Part shown: piece by piece, positions 3,647 through 59,790 of the stretch
Layout of the letters: the number at the start of each line of letters is the position of its first letter
Numbering within the stretch: position 1 is the first letter of the stretch
Source of the DNA: Escherichia phage ELT1
Direction: 5' to 3' (one strand)
Length of the DNA stretch: 64,000 nucleotides
Sequence record: MZ892903.1
The notes under the pieces: generated by a model
Databases searched by the model: none
What the model was told of the DNA's origin: nothing
What the model saw: the letters and a program-made list of their open reading frames with translations, nothing else
Program-made: the position numbers and the translations under genes

Positions 3647-4456
3647 ATGCTTAAAGAACAACTGATTGCCGAAGCGCAGAAAATTGATGCTTCCGTTGCT
3701 CTTGATAGTATTTTCGAATCAGTTAATATTTCTCCGGAAGCAAAAGAAACTTTCGGCACTGTATTCGAAGCTACCGTCAAGCAGCACGCCGTTAAATTAG
3801 CTGAATCTCATATCGCTAAAATTGCTGAAAAAGCAGAAGAAGAAGTAGAAAAAAATAAAGAAGAAGCAGAAGAAAAAGCTGAGAAGAAAATCGCTGAGCA
3901 AGCTTCTAAATTCCTTGACCATCTTGCAAAAGAATGGCTCACTGAAAATAAATTAGCAGTAGATAAAGGTATCAAAGCCGAACTGTTTGAATCCATGCTT
4001 GGTGGATTGAAAGAGCTCTTCGTTGAACACAACGTTGTTGTTCCAGAAGAATCAGTTGATGTTGTAGCTGAAATGGAAGAAGAACTGCAAGAACATAAAG
4101 AAGAATCAGCTCGTCTGTTCGAAGAACTCAATAAGCGTGACGCATATATCAATTATGTGCAGCGTGAAGTGGCATTGAGCGAAAGTACTAAAGATCTGAC
4201 TGAGTCTCAAAAAGAAAAAGTCTCTGCTCTGGTCGAAGGTATGGATTATTCAGATGCATTCTCAAGTAAATTGAGTGCAATCGTAGAAATGGTGAAGAAA
4301 TCTAATAAAGATGAAAGCACTATTACTGAGAGTATAAATACTCCTGATACTGAAGCAGCCGGACTGAATTTCGTCACTGAAGCTGTAGAAGATAAATCTG
4401 CACAAGGTGCAGAAGATATTGTAAGTGTATATGCGAAAGTCGCATCTCGTTTCTAA
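3647..4456 (+). CDS. 22: Prohead scaffold protein gp22
   Basis: 269-aa ORF, Glu/Lys/Ala-rich coiled-coil composition; position and length match T4 gp22. Confidence 0.9.
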   Translation: MLKEQLIAEAQKIDASVALDSIFESVNISPEAKETFGTVFEATVKQHAVKLAESHIAKIAEKAEEEVEKNKEEAEEKAEKKIAEQASKFLDHLAKEWLTENKLAVDKGIKAELFESMLGGLKELFVEHNVVVPEESVDVVAEMEEELQEHKEESARLFEELNKRDAYINYVQREVALSESTKDLTESQKEKVSALVEGMDYSDAFSSKLSAIVEMVKKSNKDESTITESINTPDTEAAGLNFVTEAVEDKSAQGAEDIVSVYAKVASRF

Positions 4457-4474
4457 TTTTAAAGGTTAACACAA

Positions 4475-6040
4475 ATGACTATCAAAACTAAAGCTGAACT
4501 TTTGAACAAATGGAAGCCATTACTGGAAGGTGAAGGTTTACCGGAAATTGCTAATAGCAAACAAGCGATTATCGCTAAAATCTTTGAAAACCAGGAAAAA
4601 GATTTCCAGACAGCTCCGGAATATAAAGACGAAAAAATTGCTCAGGCATTCGGTTCTTTCTTAACAGAAGCTGAAATCGGTGGTGACCACGGTTACAATG
4701 CTACCAACATCGCCGCAGGTCAGACTTCTGGCGCAGTAACTCAGATTGGCCCAGCTGTTATGGGTATGGTACGTCGTGCTATTCCTAACCTGATTGCTTT
4801 CGATATTTGTGGTGTTCAGCCAATGAACAGCCCGACTGGCCAGGTATTCGCGCTGCGCGCAGTATATGGTAAAGATCCAATCGCTTCCGGCGCTAAAGAA
4901 GCATTCCACCCAATGTATGGTCCAGATGCAATGTTCTCTGGTCAGGGTGCTGCTAAGAAATTCGCTGCTTTGAAAGCAAGTGATACTCTTGAAGTCGGAA
5001 CTATTTACACTCACTTCTTCCAGGAAACTGGTACAGTATATCTGCAAGCTACAGCAGCTAAACAAATTGGTTCAGGCGCATCTGACGCAGACAAATTAGA
5101 TGCTGAAATTAAGAAACAAATGGAAGCTGGTGTACTGGTAGAAATCGCTGAAGGTATGGCTACTTCTATCGCTGAACTTCAGGAAGGTTTCAACGGTTCT
5201 ACCGATAACCCATGGAATGAAATGGGCTTCCGTATCGATAAACAAGTTATCGAAGCTAAATCTCGTCAGCTGAAAGCTGCTTACTCTATTGAATTAGCAC
5301 AAGACCTCCGCGCTGTTCATGGTATGGATGCTGATGCTGAACTGTCTGGTATTCTGGCTACAGAAATTATGCTGGAAATCAACCGCGAAGTTGTTGATTG
5401 GATTAACTACTCCGCTCAGGTTGGTAAATCTGGTATGACCCTGACTCCGGGTTCTAAAGCTGGTGTATTTGACTTCCAGGACCCAATCGATATTCGTGGT
5501 GCTCGCTGGGCAGGTGAATCCTTTAAAGCTCTGTTGTTCCAGATTGACAAAGAAGCAGTTGAAATTGCTCGTCAGACTGGTCGCGGCGAAGGTAACTTCA
5601 TTATCGCTTCCCGTAACGTAGTTAACGTTCTGGCTTCAGTTGATACCGGCATTTCTTATGCTGCACAGGGTCTGGCTACCGGCTTTAACACTGATACTAC
5701 CAAGTCAGTATTTGCTGGTGTTCTGGGTGGTAAATACCGTGTATATATCGACCAGTATGCTAAACAGGATTATTTCACTGTAGGTTATAAAGGTCCGAAC
5801 GAAATGGATGCTGGTATTTACTATGCTCCATATGTAGCTCTGACTCCGCTGCGTGGTTCCGATCCGAAGAACTTCCAACCAGTAATGGGATTCAAAACTC
5901 GTTACGGTATCGGTATCAACCCATTTGCAGAATCCGCTGCTCAGGCTCCGGCTTCTCGCATCCAGAGCGGTATGCCTTCTATTCTGAATAGCCTTGGTAA
6001 AAACGCTTACTTTAGACGTGTATATGTTAAAGGTATCTAA
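4475..6040 (+). CDS. 23: Major capsid protein gp23
   Basis: 521-aa ORF; N-terminus MTIKTKAELLNKWKPLLEGEG matches T4 gp23 as recalled. Confidence 0.98.
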   Translation: MTIKTKAELLNKWKPLLEGEGLPEIANSKQAIIAKIFENQEKDFQTAPEYKDEKIAQAFGSFLTEAEIGGDHGYNATNIAAGQTSGAVTQIGPAVMGMVRRAIPNLIAFDICGVQPMNSPTGQVFALRAVYGKDPIASGAKEAFHPMYGPDAMFSGQGAAKKFAALKASDTLEVGTIYTHFFQETGTVYLQATAAKQIGSGASDADKLDAEIKKQMEAGVLVEIAEGMATSIAELQEGFNGSTDNPWNEMGFRIDKQVIEAKSRQLKAAYSIELAQDLRAVHGMDADAELSGILATEIMLEINREVVDWINYSAQVGKSGMTLTPGSKAGVFDFQDPIDIRGARWAGESFKALLFQIDKEAVEIARQTGRGEGNFIIASRNVVNVLASVDTGISYAAQGLATGFNTDTTKSVFAGVLGGKYRVYIDQYAKQDYFTVGYKGPNEMDAGIYYAPYVALTPLRGSDPKNFQPVMGFKTRYGIGINPFAESAAQAPASRIQSGMPSILNSLGKNAYFRRVYVKGI

Positions 6041-6055
6041 TCTTTGACGATTTAA

Positions 6056-6071
6056 GGGACCTTCGGGTCCC
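6056..6071. terminator. Stem-loop gggacc-TTCG-ggtccc followed by T-rich tract
   Basis: Perfect 6-bp stem with UUCG loop 16 bp after gene 23 stop. Confidence 0.55.
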
Positions 6072-6088
6072 TTTAGTTGTTTTTATGG

Positions 6089-6123: not shown

Positions 6124-7407
6124 ATGGCTAAAATCAACGAACTTCTGCGCGAATCAACCACAACGAATAGCAACTCAATCGGTCGCCCAAATCTCGTTGC
6201 TTTGACTCGCGCTACCACTAAATTAATATATTCTGACATTGTAGCAACGCAAAGAACTAATCAACCTGTTGCTGCTTTTTATGGTATCAAATACCTTAAT
6301 CCAGATAACGAATTTACATTTAAAACTGGTGCTACTTACGCTGGCGAAGCTGGATATGTAGACCGAGAACAAATCACAGAATTAACAGAAGAGTCTAAAT
6401 TAACTCTCAATAAAGGCGATTTATTCAAATATAATAATATCGTTTATAAAGTATTAGAAGATACACCATTTGCTACCATTGAAGAAAGTGATTTAGAATT
6501 AGCTCTTCAGATTGCAATTGTTCTTTTAAAGGTTCGTCTATTTTCTGATGCTGCAGTAACAAGCAAATTTGAAAGCTCTGATAGCGAAATTGCGGATGCT
6601 AGATTCCAGATTAATAAATGGCAAACCGCAGTTAAATCTCGTAAACTTAAAACTGGCATTACAGTTGAATTAGCGCAAGATTTAGAAGCAAATGGATTCG
6701 ATGCTCCTAATTTCTTGGAAGATTTGCTTGCAACTGAAATGGCGGATGAAATCAATAAAGATATTCTGCAATCTTTGATTACAGTATCAAAACGCTATAA
6801 AGTTACAGGAATTACTGATACTGGATTCATTGATTTGAGTTATGCATCTGCACCTGAAGCTGGTCGTTCATTATACCGAATGGTATGTGAAATGGTTTCG
6901 CATATCCAAAAAGAATCAACTTATACAGCAACGTTCTGTGTTGCTTCTGCTCGTGCCGCTGCGATTCTTGCTGCATCAGGTTGGTTAAAACATAAACCAG
7001 AAGATGACAAATATCTTTCACAAAATGCCTATGGGTTTTTAGCTAATGGTTTACCACTTTATTGCGATACTAACAGCCCATTAGATTATGTAATCGTTGG
7101 CGTAGTAGAAAATATCGGTGAAAAAGAAATTGTTGGATCAATTTTCTATGCTCCGTATACAGAAGGTCTCGACTTAGATGACCCTGAACATGTAGGTGCA
7201 TTTAAAGTTGTTGTTGATCCAGAAAGCTTACAGCCGTCTATCGGTTTATTAGTTAGATATGCTTTATCTGCAAATCCTTACACTGTAGCAAAAGATGAAA
7301 AAGAAGCAAGAATAATTGATGGTGGAGACATGGATAAAATGGCGGGTCGTTCAGATTTGTCTGTTTTATTAGGTGTTAAGCTACCAAAAATTATTGTTGA
7401 TGAATAA
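6124..7407 (+). CDS. 24: Capsid vertex protein gp24
   Basis: 427-aa ORF; length matches T4 gp24; gp23-like fold inferred from position. Confidence 0.93.
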   Translation: MAKINELLRESTTTNSNSIGRPNLVALTRATTKLIYSDIVATQRTNQPVAAFYGIKYLNPDNEFTFKTGATYAGEAGYVDREQITELTEESKLTLNKGDLFKYNNIVYKVLEDTPFATIEESDLELALQIAIVLLKVRLFSDAAVTSKFESSDSEIADARFQINKWQTAVKSRKLKTGITVELAQDLEANGFDAPNFLEDLLATEMADEINKDILQSLITVSKRYKVTGITDTGFIDLSYASAPEAGRSLYRMVCEMVSHIQKESTYTATFCVASARAAAILAASGWLKHKPEDDKYLSQNAYGFLANGLPLYCDTNSPLDYVIVGVVENIGEKEIVGSIFYAPYTEGLDLDDPEHVGAFKVVVDPESLQPSIGLLVRYALSANPYTVAKDEKEARIIDGGDMDKMAGRSDLSVLLGVKLPKIIVDE

Positions 7408-8932: not shown

Positions 8933-9001
8933 GTTATCGAGTTGGTGCCATTATATACATCATTTTCTGAGTGTGTTTTGTGTGCTTTCAAAATGAAGAA
9001 A

Positions 9002-9015
9002 GGGGCCGAAGCCCC
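9002..9015. terminator. Stem-loop ggggc-cgaa-gcccc
   Basis: Inverted repeat between hoc start and upstream gene. Confidence 0.4.
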
Positions 9016-9020
9016 TAAGA

Positions 9021-11510: not shown

Positions 11511-13019
11511 ATGGATATTAAAGTACATTTTCACGACTTCAGTCATGTACGCATCGATTGTGAAGAGAGCACGTTCCACGAATTAAGAGATTTCTTTTCG
11601 TTTGAGGCCGATGGATATAGGTTTAATCCTCGCTTCAGATATGGCAACTGGGATGGACGAATCCGTCTTTTAGATTATAATCGCCTTCTTCCATTCGGTT
11701 TAGTCGGGCAAATTAAAAAGTTCTGCGATAACTTTGGCTATAAAGCCTGGATTGACCCACAAATTAACGAAAAAGAAGAATTATCAAGAAAAGATTTTGA
11801 TGAATGGCTTTCTAAATTAGAAATCTATTCAGGAAATAAAAGAATTGAACCGCACTGGTATCAAAAAGATGCAGTGTTCGAAGGATTAGTTAATCGTCGT
11901 AGAATTCTTAATCTTCCAACATCCGCTGGTAAATCTTTAATTCAAGCTTTGCTTGCGCGTTATTATTTGGAAAATTATGAAGGTAAAATTCTTATCATTG
12001 TTCCAACAACTGCTTTAACAACTCAGATGGCTGATGACTTTGTTGACTATCGTTTATTCAGTCATGCAATGATAAAGAAAATCGGTGGTGGAGCATCAAA
12101 AGATGATAAATATAAAAATGATGCACCGGTAATTGTTGGTACATGGCAAACTGTAGTAAAACAACCGAAAGAATGGTTCTCACAGTTTGGAATGATGATG
12201 AATGATGAATGCCATCTTGCTACAGGAAAAAGTATTTCATCCATCATATCAGGTTTAAATAACTGCATGTTCAAATTCGGTTTGTCTGGTTCATTACGTG
12301 ATGGAAAAGCCAATATCATGCAGTATGTTGGAATGTTTGGTGAAATATTTAAGCCAGTAACGACTTCTAAATTAATGGAAGATGGGCAAGTAACTGAGCT
12401 AAAAATTAATAGTATTTTTCTTCGCTATCCTGATGAGTTCACTACTAAATTAAAGGGAAAAACTTACCAAGAAGAAATAAAAATTATTACTGGACTCAGT
12501 AAAAGAAATAAATGGATTGCTAAATTAGCTATTAAACTTGCACAAAAAGATGAAAACGCTTTTGTCATGTTTAAGCATGTATCACATGGTAAAGCTATTT
12601 TCGATTTAATTAAAAATGAATACGATAAAGTTTATTACGTATCAGGGGAAGTTGATACCGAAACACGCAACGTAATGAAAACCTTAGCTGAAAACGGTAA
12701 AGGAATAATTATAGTAGCTAGTTATGGTGTATTTTCTACTGGTATTTCAGTTAAAAATCTGCATCACGTTGTTTTAGCGCACGGCGTTAAATCAAAAATC
12801 ATTGTATTACAAACAATCGGTCGTGTATTACGTAAGCATGGTTCTAAAACAATCGCAACAGTCTGGGACCTCATAGATGACGCGGGCGTCAAGCCAAAAT
12901 CTGCTAATACGAAAAAGAAATATGTTCATTTGAACTATCTTTTAAAACACGGCATTGATCGTATTCAGCGCTACGCAGATGAAAAATTTAATTACGTAAT
13001 GAAAACAGTTAATTTATAA
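11511..13019 (+). CDS. uvsW: UvsW DNA/RNA helicase
   Basis: 502-aa ORF; Walker A-like PTSAGKS and helicase motifs; length matches T4 UvsW. Confidence 0.95.
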   Translation: MDIKVHFHDFSHVRIDCEESTFHELRDFFSFEADGYRFNPRFRYGNWDGRIRLLDYNRLLPFGLVGQIKKFCDNFGYKAWIDPQINEKEELSRKDFDEWLSKLEIYSGNKRIEPHWYQKDAVFEGLVNRRRILNLPTSAGKSLIQALLARYYLENYEGKILIIVPTTALTTQMADDFVDYRLFSHAMIKKIGGGASKDDKYKNDAPVIVGTWQTVVKQPKEWFSQFGMMMNDECHLATGKSISSIISGLNNCMFKFGLSGSLRDGKANIMQYVGMFGEIFKPVTTSKLMEDGQVTELKINSIFLRYPDEFTTKLKGKTYQEEIKIITGLSKRNKWIAKLAIKLAQKDENAFVMFKHVSHGKAIFDLIKNEYDKVYYVSGEVDTETRNVMKTLAENGKGIIIVASYGVFSTGISVKNLHHVVLAHGVKSKIIVLQTIGRVLRKHGSKTIATVWDLIDDAGVKPKSANTKKKYVHLNYLLKHGIDRIQRYADEKFNYVMKTVNL

Positions 13020-13031
13020 GGGCTTCGGCCC
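13020..13031. terminator. Stem-loop gggc-TTCG-gccc
   Basis: Immediately after uvsW stop. Confidence 0.4.
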
Positions 13032-13044
13032 TTTGGAGAAAAAG

Positions 13045-13527: not shown

Positions 13528-13752
13528 TTATATAACTCTCATATGCATATCAATGCCCATATCTTTAGAATAAAAATATTCATCAAGATATCCGGCAAAT
13601 TTTCCTTTAATATAAAGTACATCTTCACCGCATGGGTGGTCGGCCAGGATACGAATATCCTGACGCTTGAGATTATACTTTTTCATTAAGAATTGAATTT
13701 CCGTTTCGAATTCTTCTTCATAATTAAAAGCATCATCAATGCTATATCTCAT
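13528..13752 (-). CDS. Hypothetical protein (uvsY.-1 position)
   Basis: 74-aa ORF; its start overlaps the uvsY stop. Confidence 0.6.
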   Translation of the reverse strand: MRYSIDDAFNYEEEFETEIQFLMKKYNLKRQDIRILADHPCGEDVLYIKGKFAGYLDEYFYSKDMGIDMHMRVI

Positions 13753-20581: not shown

Positions 20582-21546
20582 TGTATTCTTTAGAGGAATT
20601 TAATAATCAAGCAATAAACGCAGATTTCCAACGTAATAATATGTTTAGCTGCGTTTTTGCAACAACTCCATCAACTAAAAGCTCTTCGTTGATAAGTTCA
20701 ATTAGCAACTTTTCTTATAATAACTTGGGCCTAAATTCAAATTGGTTAGGATTAACCCAAGGTGATATTAATCAGGGAATTACCACGCTAATTACAGCTG
20801 GCACACAAAAACTGATAAGAAAATCAGGGGTTAGTAAATATCTTATTGGTGCCATGAGTCAACGTACTGTCCAGAGTTTATTAGGCTCATTTACAGTTGG
20901 TACATATTTAATTGACTTCTTTAACATGGCATATAACTCATCTGGATTGATGATATACTCTGTAAAAATGCCAGAGAATAGATTATCCTATGAAACTGAC
21001 TGGAACTATAATTCTCCTAATATTCGTATAACTGGGAGAGAATTAGACCCTTTGGTTATTTCATTTAGGATGGATTCAGAAGCTTGTAACTATCGTGCGA
21101 TGCAAGACTGGGTTAACGCTGTTCAAGACCCAGTAACTGGATTGCGTGCTTTACCACAAGATGTCGAGGCAGATATTCAGGTTAATCTTCATGCTCGTAA
21201 TGGATTACCTCATACTGCTGTGATGTTCACCGGATGCATTCCAGTGTCAGTGAGCGCTCCTGAGTTATCATATGATGGAGATAACCAAATAACTACATTT
21301 GATGTTACTTTTGCGTATAGAGTCATGCAGTCTGGGTCGGTTGATAGACAAGCTGCGCTTGAATGGCTTGAATCTGCTGCCATAAACGGTATTCAAAGCG
21401 TTCTCGGAAATAGTGGAGGTGTTACTGGACTATCTAATTCGCTTTCACGACTTAGTAGACTAGGAGGAACCTCAGGAAGCATTTCAAACATTAATACTAT
21501 GACGGGAATTGTCAACTCGCAAAGTAAAATATTAGGAGCAATATAA
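20581..21546 (+). CDS. 54: Baseplate tail-tube initiator gp54
   Basis: 321-aa ORF; start overlaps gene 48 stop (ATGT...TAATG context). Confidence 0.9.
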   Translation: MYSLEEFNNQAINADFQRNNMFSCVFATTPSTKSSSLISSISNFSYNNLGLNSNWLGLTQGDINQGITTLITAGTQKLIRKSGVSKYLIGAMSQRTVQSLLGSFTVGTYLIDFFNMAYNSSGLMIYSVKMPENRLSYETDWNYNSPNIRITGRELDPLVISFRMDSEACNYRAMQDWVNAVQDPVTGLRALPQDVEADIQVNLHARNGLPHTAVMFTGCIPVSVSAPELSYDGDNQITTFDVTFAYRVMQSGSVDRQAALEWLESAAINGIQSVLGNSGGVTGLSNSLSRLSRLGGTSGSISNINTMTGIVNSQSKILGAI

Positions 21547-21550
21547 CAAT

Positions 21551-21568
21551 GGGGACCGAAAGGTCCCC
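21551..21568. terminator. Bidirectional stem-loop ggggacc-GAAA-ggtcccc
   Basis: 7-bp perfect stem between convergent genes 54 (+) and the 96-aa ORF (-). Confidence 0.55.
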
Positions 21569-21574
21569 ATATTT

Positions 21575-21865
21575 TTATTTACGGAATGAAATAAAAGCAG
21601 CAACTGAAGCAACTAAACTGTCTTCAATATAAACTTCAATTTTTACCGGAGCTTCTGACTCAAATTTACCTGTTACTACACCCTGAAAAATAATTTCAGT
21701 CTGTTCTGGCTTTGAAAAATTTTCAGAAGGAAAAATTCCGAACTTTTTATCTGTTCCAAAAATTTTAATAAATTCATCGTAAACCGCTTCGTTAAAAGCA
21801 TTATCAGCAGGAATAACGCCTTCAACTACAAGTTCTTGACCTAAAAAGCGTAAAGAAGATTTCAT
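21575..21865 (-). CDS. Hypothetical protein (alt.-3 position)
   Basis: 96-aa ORF; GAGGA ribosome-binding site and early-promoter cassette immediately upstream. Confidence 0.6.
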   Translation of the reverse strand: MKSSLRFLGQELVVEGVIPADNAFNEAVYDEFIKIFGTDKKFGIFPSENFSKPEQTEIIFQGVVTGKFESEAPVKIEVYIEDSLVASVAAFISFRK

Positions 21866-21872
21866 TTTGTGT

Positions 21873-21926
21873 TCCTCATGTTATGTCAGTAAGTCTACTA
21901 TAACACAACACGAGGGACTTGTAAAC
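21873..21926 (-). repeat. 54-bp early-promoter/5'UTR cassette, copy 1 (identical to 35691..35744)
   Basis: Exact 54-bp match; minus strand reads GTTTAC (-35) ... TATAGT (-10) ... GAGGA. Confidence 0.7.
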
Positions 21927-22286
21927 TACATTTTGAACTTTTTAGTACGCGTAATAGGCATGCGTCGATTTTATACTGTTTCATTGTTTGAAGAGCAGTA
22001 TCAAAAACAGCATTAATGACACCAATTGGATTTCCACCCAAGTTTTTAAGTTTAACTAATGATAGTTTCTCATTAACACCTATCATTACGATATGCATCA
22101 TTTTATCGCCTGGCTTAACGTTTTATCTGTATCATCGCCAGAGGTGTATGTACAAAATCTAAATCCAGGAAGCACGCTTTCTTCGCCGGCTTGAATAGCA
22201 AAAATTTGTGGTATTTTATGCTTAGGATTTAAGTTAACAACCGGCGCCGAAGCGCCGTCAAATAATTATGTAATAAGTTCCATGAT
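21898..22286 (-). pseudogene. Decayed partial duplicate of the alt 5' region
   Basis: Nucleotide and protein similarity to alt N-terminal region; initial frame stops after 5 codons (MELIT*); a residual 67-aa ORF (21898..22101) aligns to Alt about residues 64-128. Confidence 0.6.
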
Positions 22287-24383
22287 TTATCCTTGAACGA
22301 ACTTGTAAGGCATGTTTGCAATATCTATGCAAGATGCAATAATTCCAAGAGATGATTCTACTTTTTGTTTAACATTTGATGAAACAAATGATGCAAAGTC
22401 AACTCTGTCTTCTATTTCAATATCACCTGTCATTGCAACTACTTCACCAGTTTCCATTAGACGGTCACCGTCATAAATGACTGATTCGGTGAGTTCTTCC
22501 GTAGTCATAACTTCAGCTTGAATGAGTTTTGTATTATTAGATGTTGTTCCGTCATTATTAGAAGCATCAGTTATTTTATTAACTTTGACCATCAATCCAC
22601 GTGGTAGAATAACTTCAGCTTCTGTTGCTATTCCGAGACTTCCTGGATATACAACATTAACTTTATGAGCTCCATCAATTGCCCATCCTATTTGAACTTT
22701 AACGTATTCAGGATTTTCTTTATACGCTCTTATTTCGTTTGGATTAATAGTTATTCCTTCTTCATTTTTATCAACTGTCAATTCATTACGAGCTTCTGGT
22801 TCTAAAAGACCGATACCAGCATGTGTAATTCCAAAACGTCCAAAAATGATAGGAGTTAAAGAAGTAGATACAAAATTTCTGAAATAGAACACTTTATTTT
22901 TAACTAGCGCTTCGTATATAGGAGCAGTCATACTTTGAGCACGATAAACTGTAATGCCTTCTGGTATACGGTCACCATTTTCAAAAGCTGAATCTAAATT
23001 ATTTATCGCAGATTCAATTTCTTTTTCACTCATTACATCATATCGTGCTGGATTGTAGCGGCCTAAAAGAAGATTATTGATGTCAGTATATCCTGAACCG
23101 CAATATTCTCTAATGCCACGCTTTTGTGATGGAGTATATTTAGAACCATCGCGGGCAATAGTAATATCAATCATTGGACCAGCACCAATTCCAGAAAAGC
23201 TATAAATCATTCGTTTGAGGAATTTAGTTTTTGCTGCATTCCAGGCATTTTTAGTTATTTCTCCCCAGACTTCATCTGATTGCCCTTTACGAGTTTTATT
23301 ATGTTTATCAAGCCAAGTATCTTTATATTCTTCAAAGAATTTATTAATAGCTGCTGCATACTTCTCTAAACATTTTATTGAAGTAGTTGGTTCATTTTTA
23401 ATCGCATTAAGAATTACATCTTTAATTTTTTCAGAAACTTCACCAACCTCACTCATTGGAAAGAATTTATAGTCATAATGAAGTTCATCTGCAGTTCCTT
23501 CAGCAATAATTTTTGCTGCCTTAGTTTTAGAAGCTAATGAATTAATTCCAAGCTTCATTTCTTCTGCTTCGGGAATTAAAGGAGCTGTAGCAGGTTTATT
23601 GAAATTAGCTGCGGTAGATTCATATTTCTGGAATAATTCGCTTTCATTACGATAAGATTCTAACGATTGACTTGCCGCAATTGCTCTACGTGAAATTTTA
23701 ACTTTAACGATTACAGCTTGGTCAGAACGTTTATCATTTTCTTGCGCAATAGATGCTGCAATTGCCTCATTTTTAGTTACTTGAGCTCCAGTATCTTTAT
23801 TGATATAAACATCACCGACCTTCGATTCAACCTTAGTAAAGAGCTCGGTACTAATTTCCGGAACTCCTGGAATGTCTTCTAGTGATACATTTTTGCGATG
23901 TATAAGAATATATGCATACTTTTTATCATAATCCCAGAGTTCCTTAAGAAGGACGTATCTGCCACCTGAACGACTACGGATAAGTCTATCAGCAATAACT
24001 TGAATTTGTCGAGCTTGACCAGCGGTTTTAGACTTAAGAATACGAAGCATACAAGCATCAATTTTATACTGACGCATCGTTTGCATTGCAACAGTAAAAA
24101 CCGAATTGATATAATTAATTGGGCTTGGACCAAGACCTTTCAATTTAGCAATTGAACCTTTAGCGGTTAATGTAAAAGGAACAATATGCATCATTTTATC
24201 GCCCATCTTTAAATCACGATTAGTATCACCTCCAGATGTATAGGTACATAAACGAAAGCCCGGTTGTTCAATTGCATCATCAACATGAACTGAAAAAATT
24301 TGCGGTATTTTCTTCTTTGGATTTAAGTTTGTAATTGGAAGAGTAGTATCTTCGTCAAATAATTCTGTAATTAGTTCCATCAT
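22287..24383 (-). CDS. alt: Alt ADP-ribosyltransferase (virion-packaged)
   Basis: 698-aa ORF; N-terminus MMELITELFDE and overall sequence match T4 Alt as recalled (T4 about 682 aa). Confidence 0.9.
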   Translation of the reverse strand: MMELITELFDEDTTLPITNLNPKKKIPQIFSVHVDDAIEQPGFRLCTYTSGGDTNRDLKMGDKMMHIVPFTLTAKGSIAKLKGLGPSPINYINSVFTVAMQTMRQYKIDACMLRILKSKTAGQARQIQVIADRLIRSRSGGRYVLLKELWDYDKKYAYILIHRKNVSLEDIPGVPEISTELFTKVESKVGDVYINKDTGAQVTKNEAIAASIAQENDKRSDQAVIVKVKISRRAIAASQSLESYRNESELFQKYESTAANFNKPATAPLIPEAEEMKLGINSLASKTKAAKIIAEGTADELHYDYKFFPMSEVGEVSEKIKDVILNAIKNEPTTSIKCLEKYAAAINKFFEEYKDTWLDKHNKTRKGQSDEVWGEITKNAWNAAKTKFLKRMIYSFSGIGAGPMIDITIARDGSKYTPSQKRGIREYCGSGYTDINNLLLGRYNPARYDVMSEKEIESAINNLDSAFENGDRIPEGITVYRAQSMTAPIYEALVKNKVFYFRNFVSTSLTPIIFGRFGITHAGIGLLEPEARNELTVDKNEEGITINPNEIRAYKENPEYVKVQIGWAIDGAHKVNVVYPGSLGIATEAEVILPRGLMVKVNKITDASNNDGTTSNNTKLIQAEVMTTEELTESVIYDGDRLMETGEVVAMTGDIEIEDRVDFASFVSSNVKQKVESSLGIIASCIDIANMPYKFVQG

Positions 24384-24403
24384 ATCCTCTCTAGTGTTTA
24401 TTC

Positions 24404-24411
24404 TATTTATA
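24404..24411 (-). promoter_or_regulatory. T4-type late promoter core (TATAAATA on minus strand) upstream of alt
   Basis: Plus-strand tatttata about 20 bp upstream of alt ATG. Confidence 0.5.
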
Positions 24412-24417
24412 AATTAA

Positions 24418-24431
24418 AGGCCCGAAGGCCT
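24418..24431. terminator. Stem-loop aggcc-cgaa-ggcct
   Basis: Perfect inverted repeat just downstream of the 62-aa ORF. Confidence 0.45.
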
Positions 24432-24620
24432 TTAATAATCTAATGGTAAGAGAGTACGATATATTTCAAACTTTGGCCCTTTTTCATAGGCATCAAATGT
24501 TTCTGTAAATTTATTATAAGCGTATGCATCTACAAATTCGAGAATGACTTGTGATACAGAAGTAGAAACATCTCCACCTTCTTTTTGAGCAATGACAATT
24601 GTTTCTAAGTAAGCTTTCAT
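24432..24620 (-). CDS. Hypothetical protein
   Basis: 62-aa ORF; start overlaps DNA ligase stop. Confidence 0.5.
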   Translation of the reverse strand: MKAYLETIVIAQKEGGDVSTSVSQVILEFVDAYAYNKFTETFDAYEKGPKFEIYRTLLPLDY

Positions 24621-26080
24621 AGACCAGTTACCTCATGAAAATCACCAAATACATCCTCGAACGTATTAGCTTTAGTTTTATCTTCGCGTAAACGAATCGC
24701 AATCGGAAGAAATAATTTAACGTAATCAGTGCGGCCATCAGATTTTAACCAACCGTTGCATTCGCACTCTAGAATTTTTCCAATATAATAATTTTGGTTT
24801 TCCATAATGCGAGTACGGTCAAGTTCATGCGATTTTACACCGGCTTTATCTTTTAAGCCTGAACCAGCATTTACCTTAATTTTTCCACACTCTGACTCAA
24901 GAATAAATCCACCTGCTTTAGTAGGGTCTTTACGGTGAGGATAAATTCCTACAATTTTTAAATCAACATCAATTACTTCTTTAAATTTATAAAGATTTTT
25001 TGAACGGGCATTTTCCCATAACCCATCAACGTTTTTGAGAATAATACCTTCAAGACCTTGGTCAATATACTTTTTATAAATTACCTTGGCTTCGTCTAGG
25101 TTATTTACTACCTGGTTTTCAATTAAAATTACTTTATCATATCCTGATGTCATTTGTTCTAGTTTAGAAAAACGTACATCATATTTTAAACGAAACGTCG
25201 GAAGACCGTATATTTCTACCAACGGAACATAATCCCAGACCTGAAACTTCATGCATTGAGCTTCTTTTTCAGAAATGGTTCCCTTTAAAGATTTATTAGC
25301 GATTCCATTAGAAGTAGTACGTGATTCAGCTACTTCGGCGAATTCTTTGGCTTTACTAATTTCAGGATAAGCATCAAAAAGAAAATCTAGGCCTTCTGGC
25401 TCCTTTTTAACTTGCTCATGGTATACCAATTCGCCATCAATTAACACGCCTTCTGGATGAATCTGGCGGGCTTCTGCAGTCATTTTGATTAATTCTTCCT
25501 TAAGAAGATCTAATCCTAGATATTCATTACCGGCTCGTGATAAAAGACGAACATCATCTAATTCATCACCTCTGACTTCGGCAAAGCACCGAGCCCCATC
25601 AGCTTTTAACTGGGCAAAGGCTGGAAACTTGATATTCTTACTAATGCCTTTTTCATCATAAGAACTTGCCAGCATTTGAGGTTGTTCAGGAATTAAACCT
25701 GGCCAAACTTTGTTTGCAATAGATACTGAAGCACCGCATTCAAGGTCTCGCATCATCACCCGACGCAAAACTTCAACATCATCTTTTTTACCATCGGTGA
25801 TATATCCAGTTAATTCCTCAATTGCTGCATTTCCAGTCAATTTCCGAGTAGCTAATGTGAATTCAATGAAGTCAAGCATATCGGTAAGAGTCAACATTCC
25901 AAAACTCTGGGTAGCAATACCAGGTTTAGGCCATTTCTTGATATAATACTGCAGCCCACGAGAATAAGTCAGACGATATACTCGTTTAAGCAATTCATTA
26001 TCTTTATTCTTTTCAAGAATTGCTTGCTTCTGCTTAGTTGAACCAATAGATGCTATTTCGTTCAGAATTTTAAGAATCAT
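24617..26080 (-). CDS. 30: ATP-dependent DNA ligase
   Basis: 487-aa ORF; KxDG adenylation motif (LKADGARC); length matches T4 DNA ligase. Confidence 0.95.
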   Translation of the reverse strand: MILKILNEIASIGSTKQKQAILEKNKDNELLKRVYRLTYSRGLQYYIKKWPKPGIATQSFGMLTLTDMLDFIEFTLATRKLTGNAAIEELTGYITDGKKDDVEVLRRVMMRDLECGASVSIANKVWPGLIPEQPQMLASSYDEKGISKNIKFPAFAQLKADGARCFAEVRGDELDDVRLLSRAGNEYLGLDLLKEELIKMTAEARQIHPEGVLIDGELVYHEQVKKEPEGLDFLFDAYPEISKAKEFAEVAESRTTSNGIANKSLKGTISEKEAQCMKFQVWDYVPLVEIYGLPTFRLKYDVRFSKLEQMTSGYDKVILIENQVVNNLDEAKVIYKKYIDQGLEGIILKNVDGLWENARSKNLYKFKEVIDVDLKIVGIYPHRKDPTKAGGFILESECGKIKVNAGSGLKDKAGVKSHELDRTRIMENQNYYIGKILECECNGWLKSDGRTDYVKLFLPIAIRLREDKTKANTFEDVFGDFHEVTGL

Positions 26081-29126: not shown

Positions 29127-29212
29127 TTTATTCTCCTTTGTTTGTGTAAGATAATACTATCACAAAGGAACCATACTGTAAACAACTTTGTGCAATCTTT
29201 GGAAAATAAAAA

Positions 29213-29232
29213 AGGACTCCCGAAGGAGTCCT
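29213..29232. terminator. Stem-loop aggactcc-cgaa-ggagtcct
   Basis: 8-bp perfect stem just downstream of the small basic ORF. Confidence 0.5.
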
Positions 29233-29236
29233 CAAC

Positions 29237-55702: not shown

Positions 55703-55707
55703 ATTGA

Positions 55708-55725
55708 GGGAGCCTTCGGGTTCCC
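55708..55725 (+). terminator. Stem-loop gggagcc-ttcg-ggttccc followed by T-run
   Basis: Immediately after gene 35 stop. Confidence 0.5.
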
Positions 55726-55764
55726 TTTTTCTTTATAAATACTATTAAAATAAAGGGGCATACA

Positions 55765-59762: not shown

Positions 59763-59778
59763 GAGGGGCTTCGGCCCC
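59763..59778 (+). terminator. Stem-loop aggggc-ttcg-gcccct
   Basis: Immediately after gene 37 stop. Confidence 0.45.
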
Positions 59779-59790
59779 TTGGAGGTTTAT

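Follow-up and report, generated by a model that had tools for sequence, protein, structure and literature searches.

The sequence downstream of alt in Escherichia phage ELT1 is probably the deletion remnant of a second alt-type ADP-ribosyltransferase gene

Escherichia phage ELT1 (sequence record MZ892903.1, of which the 64,000-nucleotide (nt) stretch analysed here is called the window) carries a region of alt-like sequence immediately downstream of the ADP-ribosyltransferase (ART) gene alt. The closest described system is the alt.-1/alt.-2 pair of phage T4 (AF158101 / NC_000866; UniProt P39495 and P39494), whose record AF158101 annotates alt.-1 (61 amino acids (aa)) and alt.-2 (67 aa) as the outcome of an ancient duplication of the beginning of alt. 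Nolan et al. (2006) list both as paralogous to alt (PMC1524935); theirs was the sole paper mentioning alt.-1/alt.-2 found in our search of an incompletely searchable literature. Alt-related tandem open reading frames (ORFs) adjoining alt are grouped in the same paper with T4 alt.-1/alt.-2, namely 44RR ORF187c (full-length), 44RR ORF188c and RB49 ORF183c, although these paralogs are from other genera and are likened to the Tequatrovirus locus by that published grouping only. The six N-terminal residues of T4 Alt form a propeptide of the capsid-targeting type that is cleaved by gp21 (PMC5694885), and T4 is described as encoding three ARTs (PMC3014915). We conclude, with a probability of about 0.87, that the ELT1 region is a pseudogene, the 5′ stump of a full-length second alt-type ART gene (here named alt2) that was cut by a 1699-bp deletion.

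What ELT1 carries here is the known alt.-1/alt.-2 locus of T4, to which one nonsense mutation has been added. The region is of the Tequatrovirus type, and the 771 nt around the remnant are 99.1% identical to Escherichia phage JEP6 and 97.7–98.2% identical to T4 records, with which it is collinear and has like flanking genes; the comparison with the T4 alt.-1/alt.-2 region suggested by the original prediction, which was made from the sequence alone, thus led to the same locus. ELT1 and T4 share the deletion junction and a frameshift in a run of A residues, but differ in that ELT1 (like JEP6, Lutter, FJ1 and others) has a GAA to TAA change at codon 6. The two T4 ORFs with their ATGA overlap are therefore not found as such in the window, where the 61-aa frame ends after five codons and 'alt.-1' is reduced to MELIT. 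The remnant ATG is situated 3 nt past the alt stop codon, with a Shine-Dalgarno sequence (AAGGA) within the final alt codons. What is new is the apparent origin of the locus, a full-length paralog truncated between 9-bp repeats with all stages of decay sampled among its relatives; our search of the incompletely searchable literature found no paper stating such an origin.

The similarity to alt noted in the original prediction is significant by formal alignment. BLASTN comparison of the 421 nt downstream of alt with alt itself gives 142 identities in 203 positions (70%, E = 1e-20) from the alt start codon onward and a second collinear segment (42/59, E = 7e-4). The 67-aa ORF corresponding to alt.-2 aligns by BLASTP with Alt residues 64–118 (34/55 identical, E = 1e-21), so that its match to Alt stands as predicted but the proposed extent, to residue 128, does not; the homology ends at ...LKS and the final 12 residues (SKCSLQVPRVVL) have no Alt counterpart. 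This ORF also matches PHROG 802 (E = 8e-20, profile positions 64–120), corresponding to the conserved N-terminal region of Alt, and a Pfam search of its product finds no domain, the ADPrib_exo_Tox domain with its R, S-T-S and E-x-E motifs being absent. The first frame reads ATGGAACTTATTACA-TAA (22283–22266, minus strand), MELIT and then a stop, as had been described, and all of the other elements described were likewise recovered within 1 nt of where they had been placed.

A second gene is much closer to the region than alt is. The window matches phage HY01 in two segments, coordinates 4461–4855 (96.2% identity) and 6546–6931 (96.6%), that overlap by 9 nt, the first covering alt2 nt 1 to ~350 and the second the 3′ end of alt2 together with the alt.-3 region; the remnant is 67–70% identical to its own alt, as against 96% to alt2. 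A sensitive search of phage records with a 425-nt query yielded 489 records covering at least 80% of it. Most of these match only the first 354 nt, at 93–97% identity, and do so within a gene labelled "Alt-like RNA polymerase ADP-ribosyltransferase". In HY01, T2, phiD1 and JB75 this gene encodes 685 aa, begins 3 nt after the alt stop codon and ends 60 nt before the downstream gene alt.-3. The first ~350 nt of the window region are 95–97% identical to alt2 of T2, T6, HY01, phiD1, JB75 and ~400 Tequatroviruses and are alike in start context, hairpin and position, whereas the window copy keeps only codons 1–117, carries three lesions and has no ART domain. What was taken for a partial tandem duplication of alt thus matches the first ~360 nt of a complete gene for a 685-aa product, with 96% identity. 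Intact alt2 copies were recorded at locus L004 (4508–6565), with equivalents in T2, JB75, phiD1 and the metagenome loci L026 and L029–L031.

Intact alt2 has the properties of a working gene, since the ratio of nonsynonymous to synonymous polymorphism (pN/pS) among nine intact copies is 0.043; it is 0.018 for residues 1–235 and 0.01 in the ~350 nt common with the remnants. Its product is 41% identical to Alt overall, the first ~235 residues being much better conserved than the middle region (residues ~240–420), which is essentially unrelated to Alt; residues 1 to ~235 have at least 99% protein identity in 377 records. The Pfam ADPrib_exo_Tox domain is recognised (E = 3e-20) with invariant R, STS and ExE motifs, and an LEE motif aligns with the gp21 cleavage site LTE-619 of Alt. 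Like T4 Alt (a packaged NAD:arginine ADP-ribosyltransferase, PF03496), the parent of the remnant has the MELITE propeptide and a conserved N-terminal stretch of ~235 residues, but the identity of the remnant to T4 Alt is only 62% in protein and 70% in nt, and the remnant lacks the catalytic domain. The Moonvirus Citrobacter phage NM4.3 has the same alt–alt2–alt.-3 tandem, and the tandem alt pair therefore predates the genus. A literature search for a 'second alt' gene of the T-even phages found no relevant paper and no functional study of alt2, although the searchable literature is incomplete, and a sequence search of the Protein Data Bank with Alt found no solved structure.

Three lesions separate the window from intact alt2 (Table 1). 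The first is the 1699-bp deletion between two 9-bp direct repeats, CTAAAAAGT, of which a single copy remains. The repeats lie in intact alt2 at codons ~115–117 (V-L-K-S) and 16 nt before the stop codon (S-K-K-F-K-M-stop), and alt.-3, which follows 2118 nt after the start of alt2 in intact phages, does so after 419 nt in the deletion carrier N2. Codons ~118–680 are missing, including the R, STS and ExE motifs, and of the alt2 coding sequence the final 11 nt, TAG included, survive past the junction, the remaining repeat copy adding five coding bases. Because the two repeats are in different frames, 'alt.-2' reads SKCSLQVPRVVL after ...VLKS; this tail passes through the final alt2 codons and their former TAG stop into the alt.-3 promoter, where a TAG within the −10 hexamer ends it. 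Thus residues 1–55 of the 67-aa ORF correspond to alt2/Alt residues ~62–117 in the ancestral frame and residues 56–67 are out of frame. The second lesion is the loss of one nucleotide from an A-run, A5 in all intact alt2 copies and in the remnants N2, EC128 and FL12 and A4 in the window and T4. The third is the codon 6 nonsense change (22266–22268), common to JEP6 and others and not present in T4.

Table 1. Coordinates of features in and around the alt2 remnant of the ELT1 window.
Feature	Coordinates	Strand	Basis
Bidirectional terminator hairpin, alt.-3 / gene 54	21549..21570	.	Two-strand terminator scan; annotated in Lutter and JB75
alt.-3, intact, 96 aa, DUF5498	21575..21865	-	ORF; annotation; Pfam
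Early (sigma-70 type) promoter of alt.-3: GTTTACA, 17 nt, TG-n-TATAGT	21897..21926	-	Best minus-strand promoter match in the region
'alt.-2' ORF, 67 aa	21898..22101	-	ORF list; phrog_15247
Relic of the final alt2 codons, original TAG at 21926-21928	21926..21936	-	Comparison with HY01 and T2 3′ ends
Deletion junction, single remaining CTAAAAAGT copy	21937..21945	-	9-nt overlap of BLAST segments; junction alignment
A-run frameshift, A5 to A4 (lesion 2), splitting the 'alt.-1' and 'alt.-2' frames	22121..22124	-	Alignments
cGGCGC-UUCG-GCGCCg hairpin, alt2 codons 9-14 (D-GASAP)	22242..22257	-	Fold; hairpin scan
alt2 remnant start, MELIT-TAA	22266..22283	-	Sequence; alignment with T4, HY01 and T2 (these have GAA)
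alt, intact packaged ADP-ribosyltransferase, 697/698 aa	22287..24383	-	ORF; Pfam ADPrib_exo_Tox E=5.7e-37; annotated alt in T4 and relatives
T4-type late promoter TATAAATA, upstream of alt	24404..24411	-	Pattern search

The distribution of the deletion was surveyed among 50,697 phage records with a 120-nt query spanning the junction. This query aligns contiguously in 90 of 499 records; the others, which are of the intact type and include T6, match it as two separate halves with an overlap at the repeat. The 3′ two-thirds of alt2 are at least 80% present in 402 of 407 records, and about four-fifths of sequenced relatives have an intact alt2 while about one-fifth have the T4-type deletion. One record named T4 (LR597657.1, Escherichia phage T4_ev240) splits the junction query, implying a full-length alt2, and is possibly a recombinant or evolved hybrid. 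The gene was also lost by a different deletion in phage sutha (PV245934), a separate event in which ~1.94 kb between the alt stop and alt2 codon ~647 was removed, so that a 3′ stump of 38 aa remains, and alt2 loss is therefore recurrent. The sutha stump (locus 4012–4128) is annotated 'Alt-like ADP-ribosyltransferase'.

Sixteen deletion carriers (12 phage records, the window and three IMG/VR contigs) were aligned, and all have the same junction with differing secondary lesions. The freshest stage of this decay series is N2 (ON645936), which has no secondary lesion and an open 128-aa ORF with the Alt2 N-terminus, including the MELITE gp21 propeptide (locus 658–1044). EC128, FL12 and SG1 have the TAA only, T4 and two IMG/VR contigs have the frameshift only, and the window, JEP6, Lutter, FJ1, GRNsp7 and ESh36 have both. 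Further lesions are added to these two in PD112 and 235Ecol030PP (loss of 1 nt from a T-run, shortening alt.-2 to 39 aa) and in HY03 (a 7-nt tandem duplication, AGAAACT); the codon 6 TAA is present in 12 of the 16. HY03 (KR269718; 2400–3044 and 3048–3472) also appears to retain of alt itself only a C-terminal ORF of 214 aa, upstream of which the genes lie on the opposite strand. Variants found only in remnants comprise 8 nonsynonymous and 6 synonymous changes as against 0 and 13 for those found only in intact copies (Fisher p = 0.002, from a small sample), a signature of relaxed selection in the remnants compared with intact alt2. The region therefore has the usual attributes of a pseudogene: an intact orthologue at the same position in close relatives, disabling lesions that are heterogeneous among lineages, and relaxed selection. 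The decay that had been proposed for this copy of the alt 5′ end is borne out, and the copy is most likely non-functional.

The history of the locus may be reconstructed as follows. The ancestral layout, still predominant in Tequatrovirus, would have had alt2 3 nt after alt and translationally coupled to it. In the lineage of T4 and the window, replication slippage or short-homology recombination between the CTAAAAAGT repeats would have removed 1699 bp and with it the whole catalytic domain, while sparing the early promoter of alt.-3. Subsequent decay would include the loss of 1 nt from the A-run, giving the alt.-1/alt.-2 split, and in the window also the change of GAA to TAA at codon 6. The stump would now be transcribed passively in alt read-through RNA, ribosomes coupled from alt would yield MELIT only, and the 67-aa 'alt.-2' would be an accident of ancestral Met-Met codons and an out-of-frame tail that ends in the alt.-3 −10 box. 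We infer how the deletion came about, in which order the lesions followed and that no function remains. Deletions between short direct repeats occur in T4, for example in rII. The alt2 deletion resembles these in that its end points are in a direct repeat of which one copy is kept, but unlike the rII deletions it is a natural polymorphism fixed in a sub-lineage and not a laboratory mutant.

The principal alternative in the existing annotation, that only the first ~390 bp of alt were copied in tandem in situ and then diverged, agrees with the note in the T4 record and with homology to alt that starts exactly at the start codon. It is nevertheless highly improbable, as a full-length gene that occupies this place in ~80% of relatives matches the copy at 96% identity and alt does so at only ~68%, the final 11 nt of that gene, TAG included, persist beyond the junction, which is itself a 9-bp repeat found twice in intact alt2, and Moonvirus has both genes full-length. 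A second possibility is that Alt.-2 is a functional small protein made from the internal Met-Met, for example a piece of the Alt N-terminal domain modulating the packaging or activity of Alt, akin to the truncated paralog expressed from an internal start that was proposed originally. That the ORF is open in 13 of 16 remnants, that an ATGA stop/start overlap with alt.-1 could couple its translation in T4, that its RNA is present in T4 and that PHROGs treats it as a family all speak for this, but we consider it quite unlikely. Lesions truncate or shift the ORF in PD112, 235Ecol030PP and HY03, and the upstream frame is closed at codon 6 in the window and 11 others, with loss of the coupling; the ORF is preceded by a bare AGG, takes its last 12 residues from out-of-frame and promoter DNA, and covers just residues 62–117 of the ~235-residue conserved N-terminal region. 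Its protein was undetected in T4, and the substitutions in the remnants show relaxed selection.

The secondary lesions could also have been positively selected, if the fresh 128-aa product with its MELITE propeptide and gp21 site competed with Alt for the prohead. The role of the Alt propeptide in capsid targeting fits such a competition, and the frame is closed in 15 of 16 carriers by at least one of two independent lesions, with only N2 keeping the 128-aa ORF. However, one nonsense mutation and a few homopolymer indels beside ~14 remnant-specific substitutions are what neutral decay would be expected to give, and N2 is viable with the ORF open, so that selection for the lesions is improbable, if a little less so than a functional Alt.-2. 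Several points weigh against the pseudogene interpretation itself. The 67-aa ORF is open in most sampled remnants (13 of 16), and, as proteomics easily misses small proteins, some expression of Alt.-2 is conceivable. The identical junction could have arisen repeatedly at the same repeats, and all four combinations of TAA and frameshift exist, which needs recombination or recurrent slippage. The searchable literature yielded no experiment on the alt.-1/alt.-2 locus. On balance the truncated alt2 remains our preferred interpretation: the stump likely makes no functional protein, the alt.-3 promoter at its 3′ end likely still matters, and the stable C(UUCG)G hairpin possibly does.

A search for the late-promoter pattern between gene 30 and the terminator after alt.-3 found no match except the one upstream of alt, and with this sole late promoter and none of note facing the stump, the RNA of the stump is attributed to read-through. 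The terminator beyond alt.-3 is likely the 3′ end of transcripts crossing the remnant. In a T4 time-course omics study (PMC9697503), alt.-1 and alt.-2 RNA share the class of alt RNA; Table S2 of that study lists the Alt.-1 and Alt.-2 proteins as not detected, and the part of its Table S3 covered here gives Alt.-1 an intensity of zero in every sample and contains no row for Alt.-2. Both Alt and Alt.-3 are abundant proteins in that study. Upstream of the alt.-2 ATG the bare AGG alone resembles a Shine-Dalgarno sequence, and the ATGA coupling of the T4 type is lost in the window because the upstream frame is closed by the TAA. Expression from the internal start, as originally envisaged, is accordingly unlikely, given also that the ORF is broken in three of 16 sister remnants, that selection is relaxed and that the T4 proteins are undetected despite their RNA. 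The phrog_15247 and phrog_23015 families ('unknown function') have the 67-aa Alt.-2 and the 61-aa Alt.-1 fragments, respectively, as their exact counterparts, and several GenBank records name the 67-aa ORF 'RNA polymerase-ADP-ribosyltransferase'.

The promoter of alt.-3 scores 10 of 12 plus the TG, has A-rich DNA upstream and conforms by sequence to T4 early promoters; it is also annotated in phage Lutter. RNA and protein of T4 alt.-3 are of the early class in the omics study (PMC9697503). The right-hand repeat is situated just upstream of the A-rich region of this promoter, and the deletion would be about the largest able to remove alt2 without harming alt.-3 expression.

The hairpin within the stump had been described as GGCGC-TTCG-GCGCC replacing part of the alt-like coding sequence. 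It is present, with an actual stem of 6 bp, and is situated 29 nt past the alt stop; its six G:C pairs, UUCG loop and closing C:G pair give a self-stable C(UUCG)G tetraloop that is the sole element of the centroid fold (−12.8 kcal/mol). While the sequence does differ from alt at this position, it is no scar of decay and is instead a derived feature of a functional gene, as the same 14–16 nt are invariant in every intact alt2 examined, where they encode G-A-S-A-P. The hairpin is invariant in 22 phage or IMG/VR copies and five metagenome copies, intact or decayed; being found in both alike, it is no mark of decay and predates it. Pattern scans of IMG/VR and metagenomes gave 10 further loci with an identical hairpin in all, and thus no variants for covariation. 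Neither alt (DEDTTLPI) nor Moonvirus alt2 (DESKLDLPV) has the hairpin, and judged from these sequences it is a Tequatrovirus-specific feature of the variable linker between the MELITELFD and NLNPK motifs. A reading as an intrinsic terminator was rejected: GTTGTTAACTTA follows with no T-run, the terminator scan makes no call, and the hairpin is inside the coding sequence of intact alt2. An Rfam scan of 21400–24700 (E ≤ 1) found no match.

The DGASAP codons are rare ones (GGC 0.16, TCG 0.06, GCG 0.09, CCG 0.15), with a chance of 1.5e-5 for the exact codons in a window of 36% GC. This argument holds in part, as the peptide G-A-x-A-P is a palindrome to begin with and some 5-bp hairpin results from ~36% of synonymous encodings; the surrounding 121-nt region has no unusual structure overall (z = −0.1). 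The cUUCGg tetraloop was first found in T4 mRNA (PMC4371310). Seven of the 10 UUCG hairpins in the window are no more than 13 nt after a same-strand stop codon. Such an intercistronic placement is the classic one for the C(UUCG)G hairpins of T4 mRNAs, reportedly described by Tuerk et al. in 1988. The alt2 hairpin resembles these in its UUCG loop, C:G closure, G+C stem and position soon after a gene end, but unlike them is 29 nt past the stop and, in intact phages, within the next coding sequence.

A function of the hairpin as an RNA element of the alt transcript, either a barrier to 3′-exonucleases or a partial attenuator, is a tentative possibility, and would be one reason for the persistence of the first part of the stump; such a role is compatible with the gene being a pseudogene. 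It would account for a stem of six G:C pairs with a cUUCGg tetraloop in a window of low GC content, built from codons as rare as those above, for its invariance in 27 copies whether alt2 is intact or dead, and for the agreement of seven of 10 UUCG hairpins with the T4 intercistronic pattern. However, the lack of a following T-run means that it is no intrinsic terminator, it must be read through within alt2 in intact phages, and the palindromic G-A-x-A-P motif forms some 5-bp hairpin in ~36% of encodings. Invariance over 14–16 nt is not significant at ~97% overall identity (roughly p~0.1 from the share of variable columns), and there are no variants, an unremarkable z for the 121-nt region (−0.1) and no Rfam match. 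More doubtful still is the broader notion that the stump is not wholly inert, in that its rare-codon hairpin might set the 3′ stability of alt mRNA or meter the flow of ribosomes from alt to alt2; were it true, the hairpin and the alt.-3 promoter at opposite ends may bound which alt2 deletions are viable.

The window itself is of little consequence, being an annotated T4-type pseudogene. The comparisons suggest that T4 has lost a fourth enzyme, Alt2, that T2, T6 and ~80% of sequenced relatives appear to keep under strong purifying selection and that is probably packaged in the virion; its loss bears on generalising from the 'three ARTs' picture of T4. The description as a duplication of the first part of alt, the families phrog_15247 and phrog_23015 and the label 'RNA polymerase-ADP-ribosyltransferase' are misleading, and the locus should be annotated as a second-alt pseudogene. 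It provides a clean natural example of gene loss in a compact phage genome, with a repeat-mediated deletion followed by heterogeneous small lesions.

The genes around the remnant are arranged on the minus strand in the order gene 30 (ligase), alt.1, alt, remnant, alt.-3 and the bidirectional terminator, with gene 54 on the plus strand. Variants of T4 Alt.-3 with a C-terminal extension allow the phage to escape the CmdTAC defence system (PMC11618068). The 62-aa product of alt.1 (24432–24620, minus strand) matches Pfam PF24647, 'Phage blade protein' (E = 2e-29), and the alt.1 stop codon is within a C(UUCG)G hairpin with a 10-bp stem (24413–24436) directly upstream of the alt late promoter. Eight more UUCG hairpins with G+C stems are located at 65–82, 6054–6073, 9001–9016, 13018–13033, 13643–13664, 29212–29233, 55706–55727 and 59763–59780; most of these are 0–13 nt past a same-strand stop codon, and several are directly before a TATAAATA late promoter.

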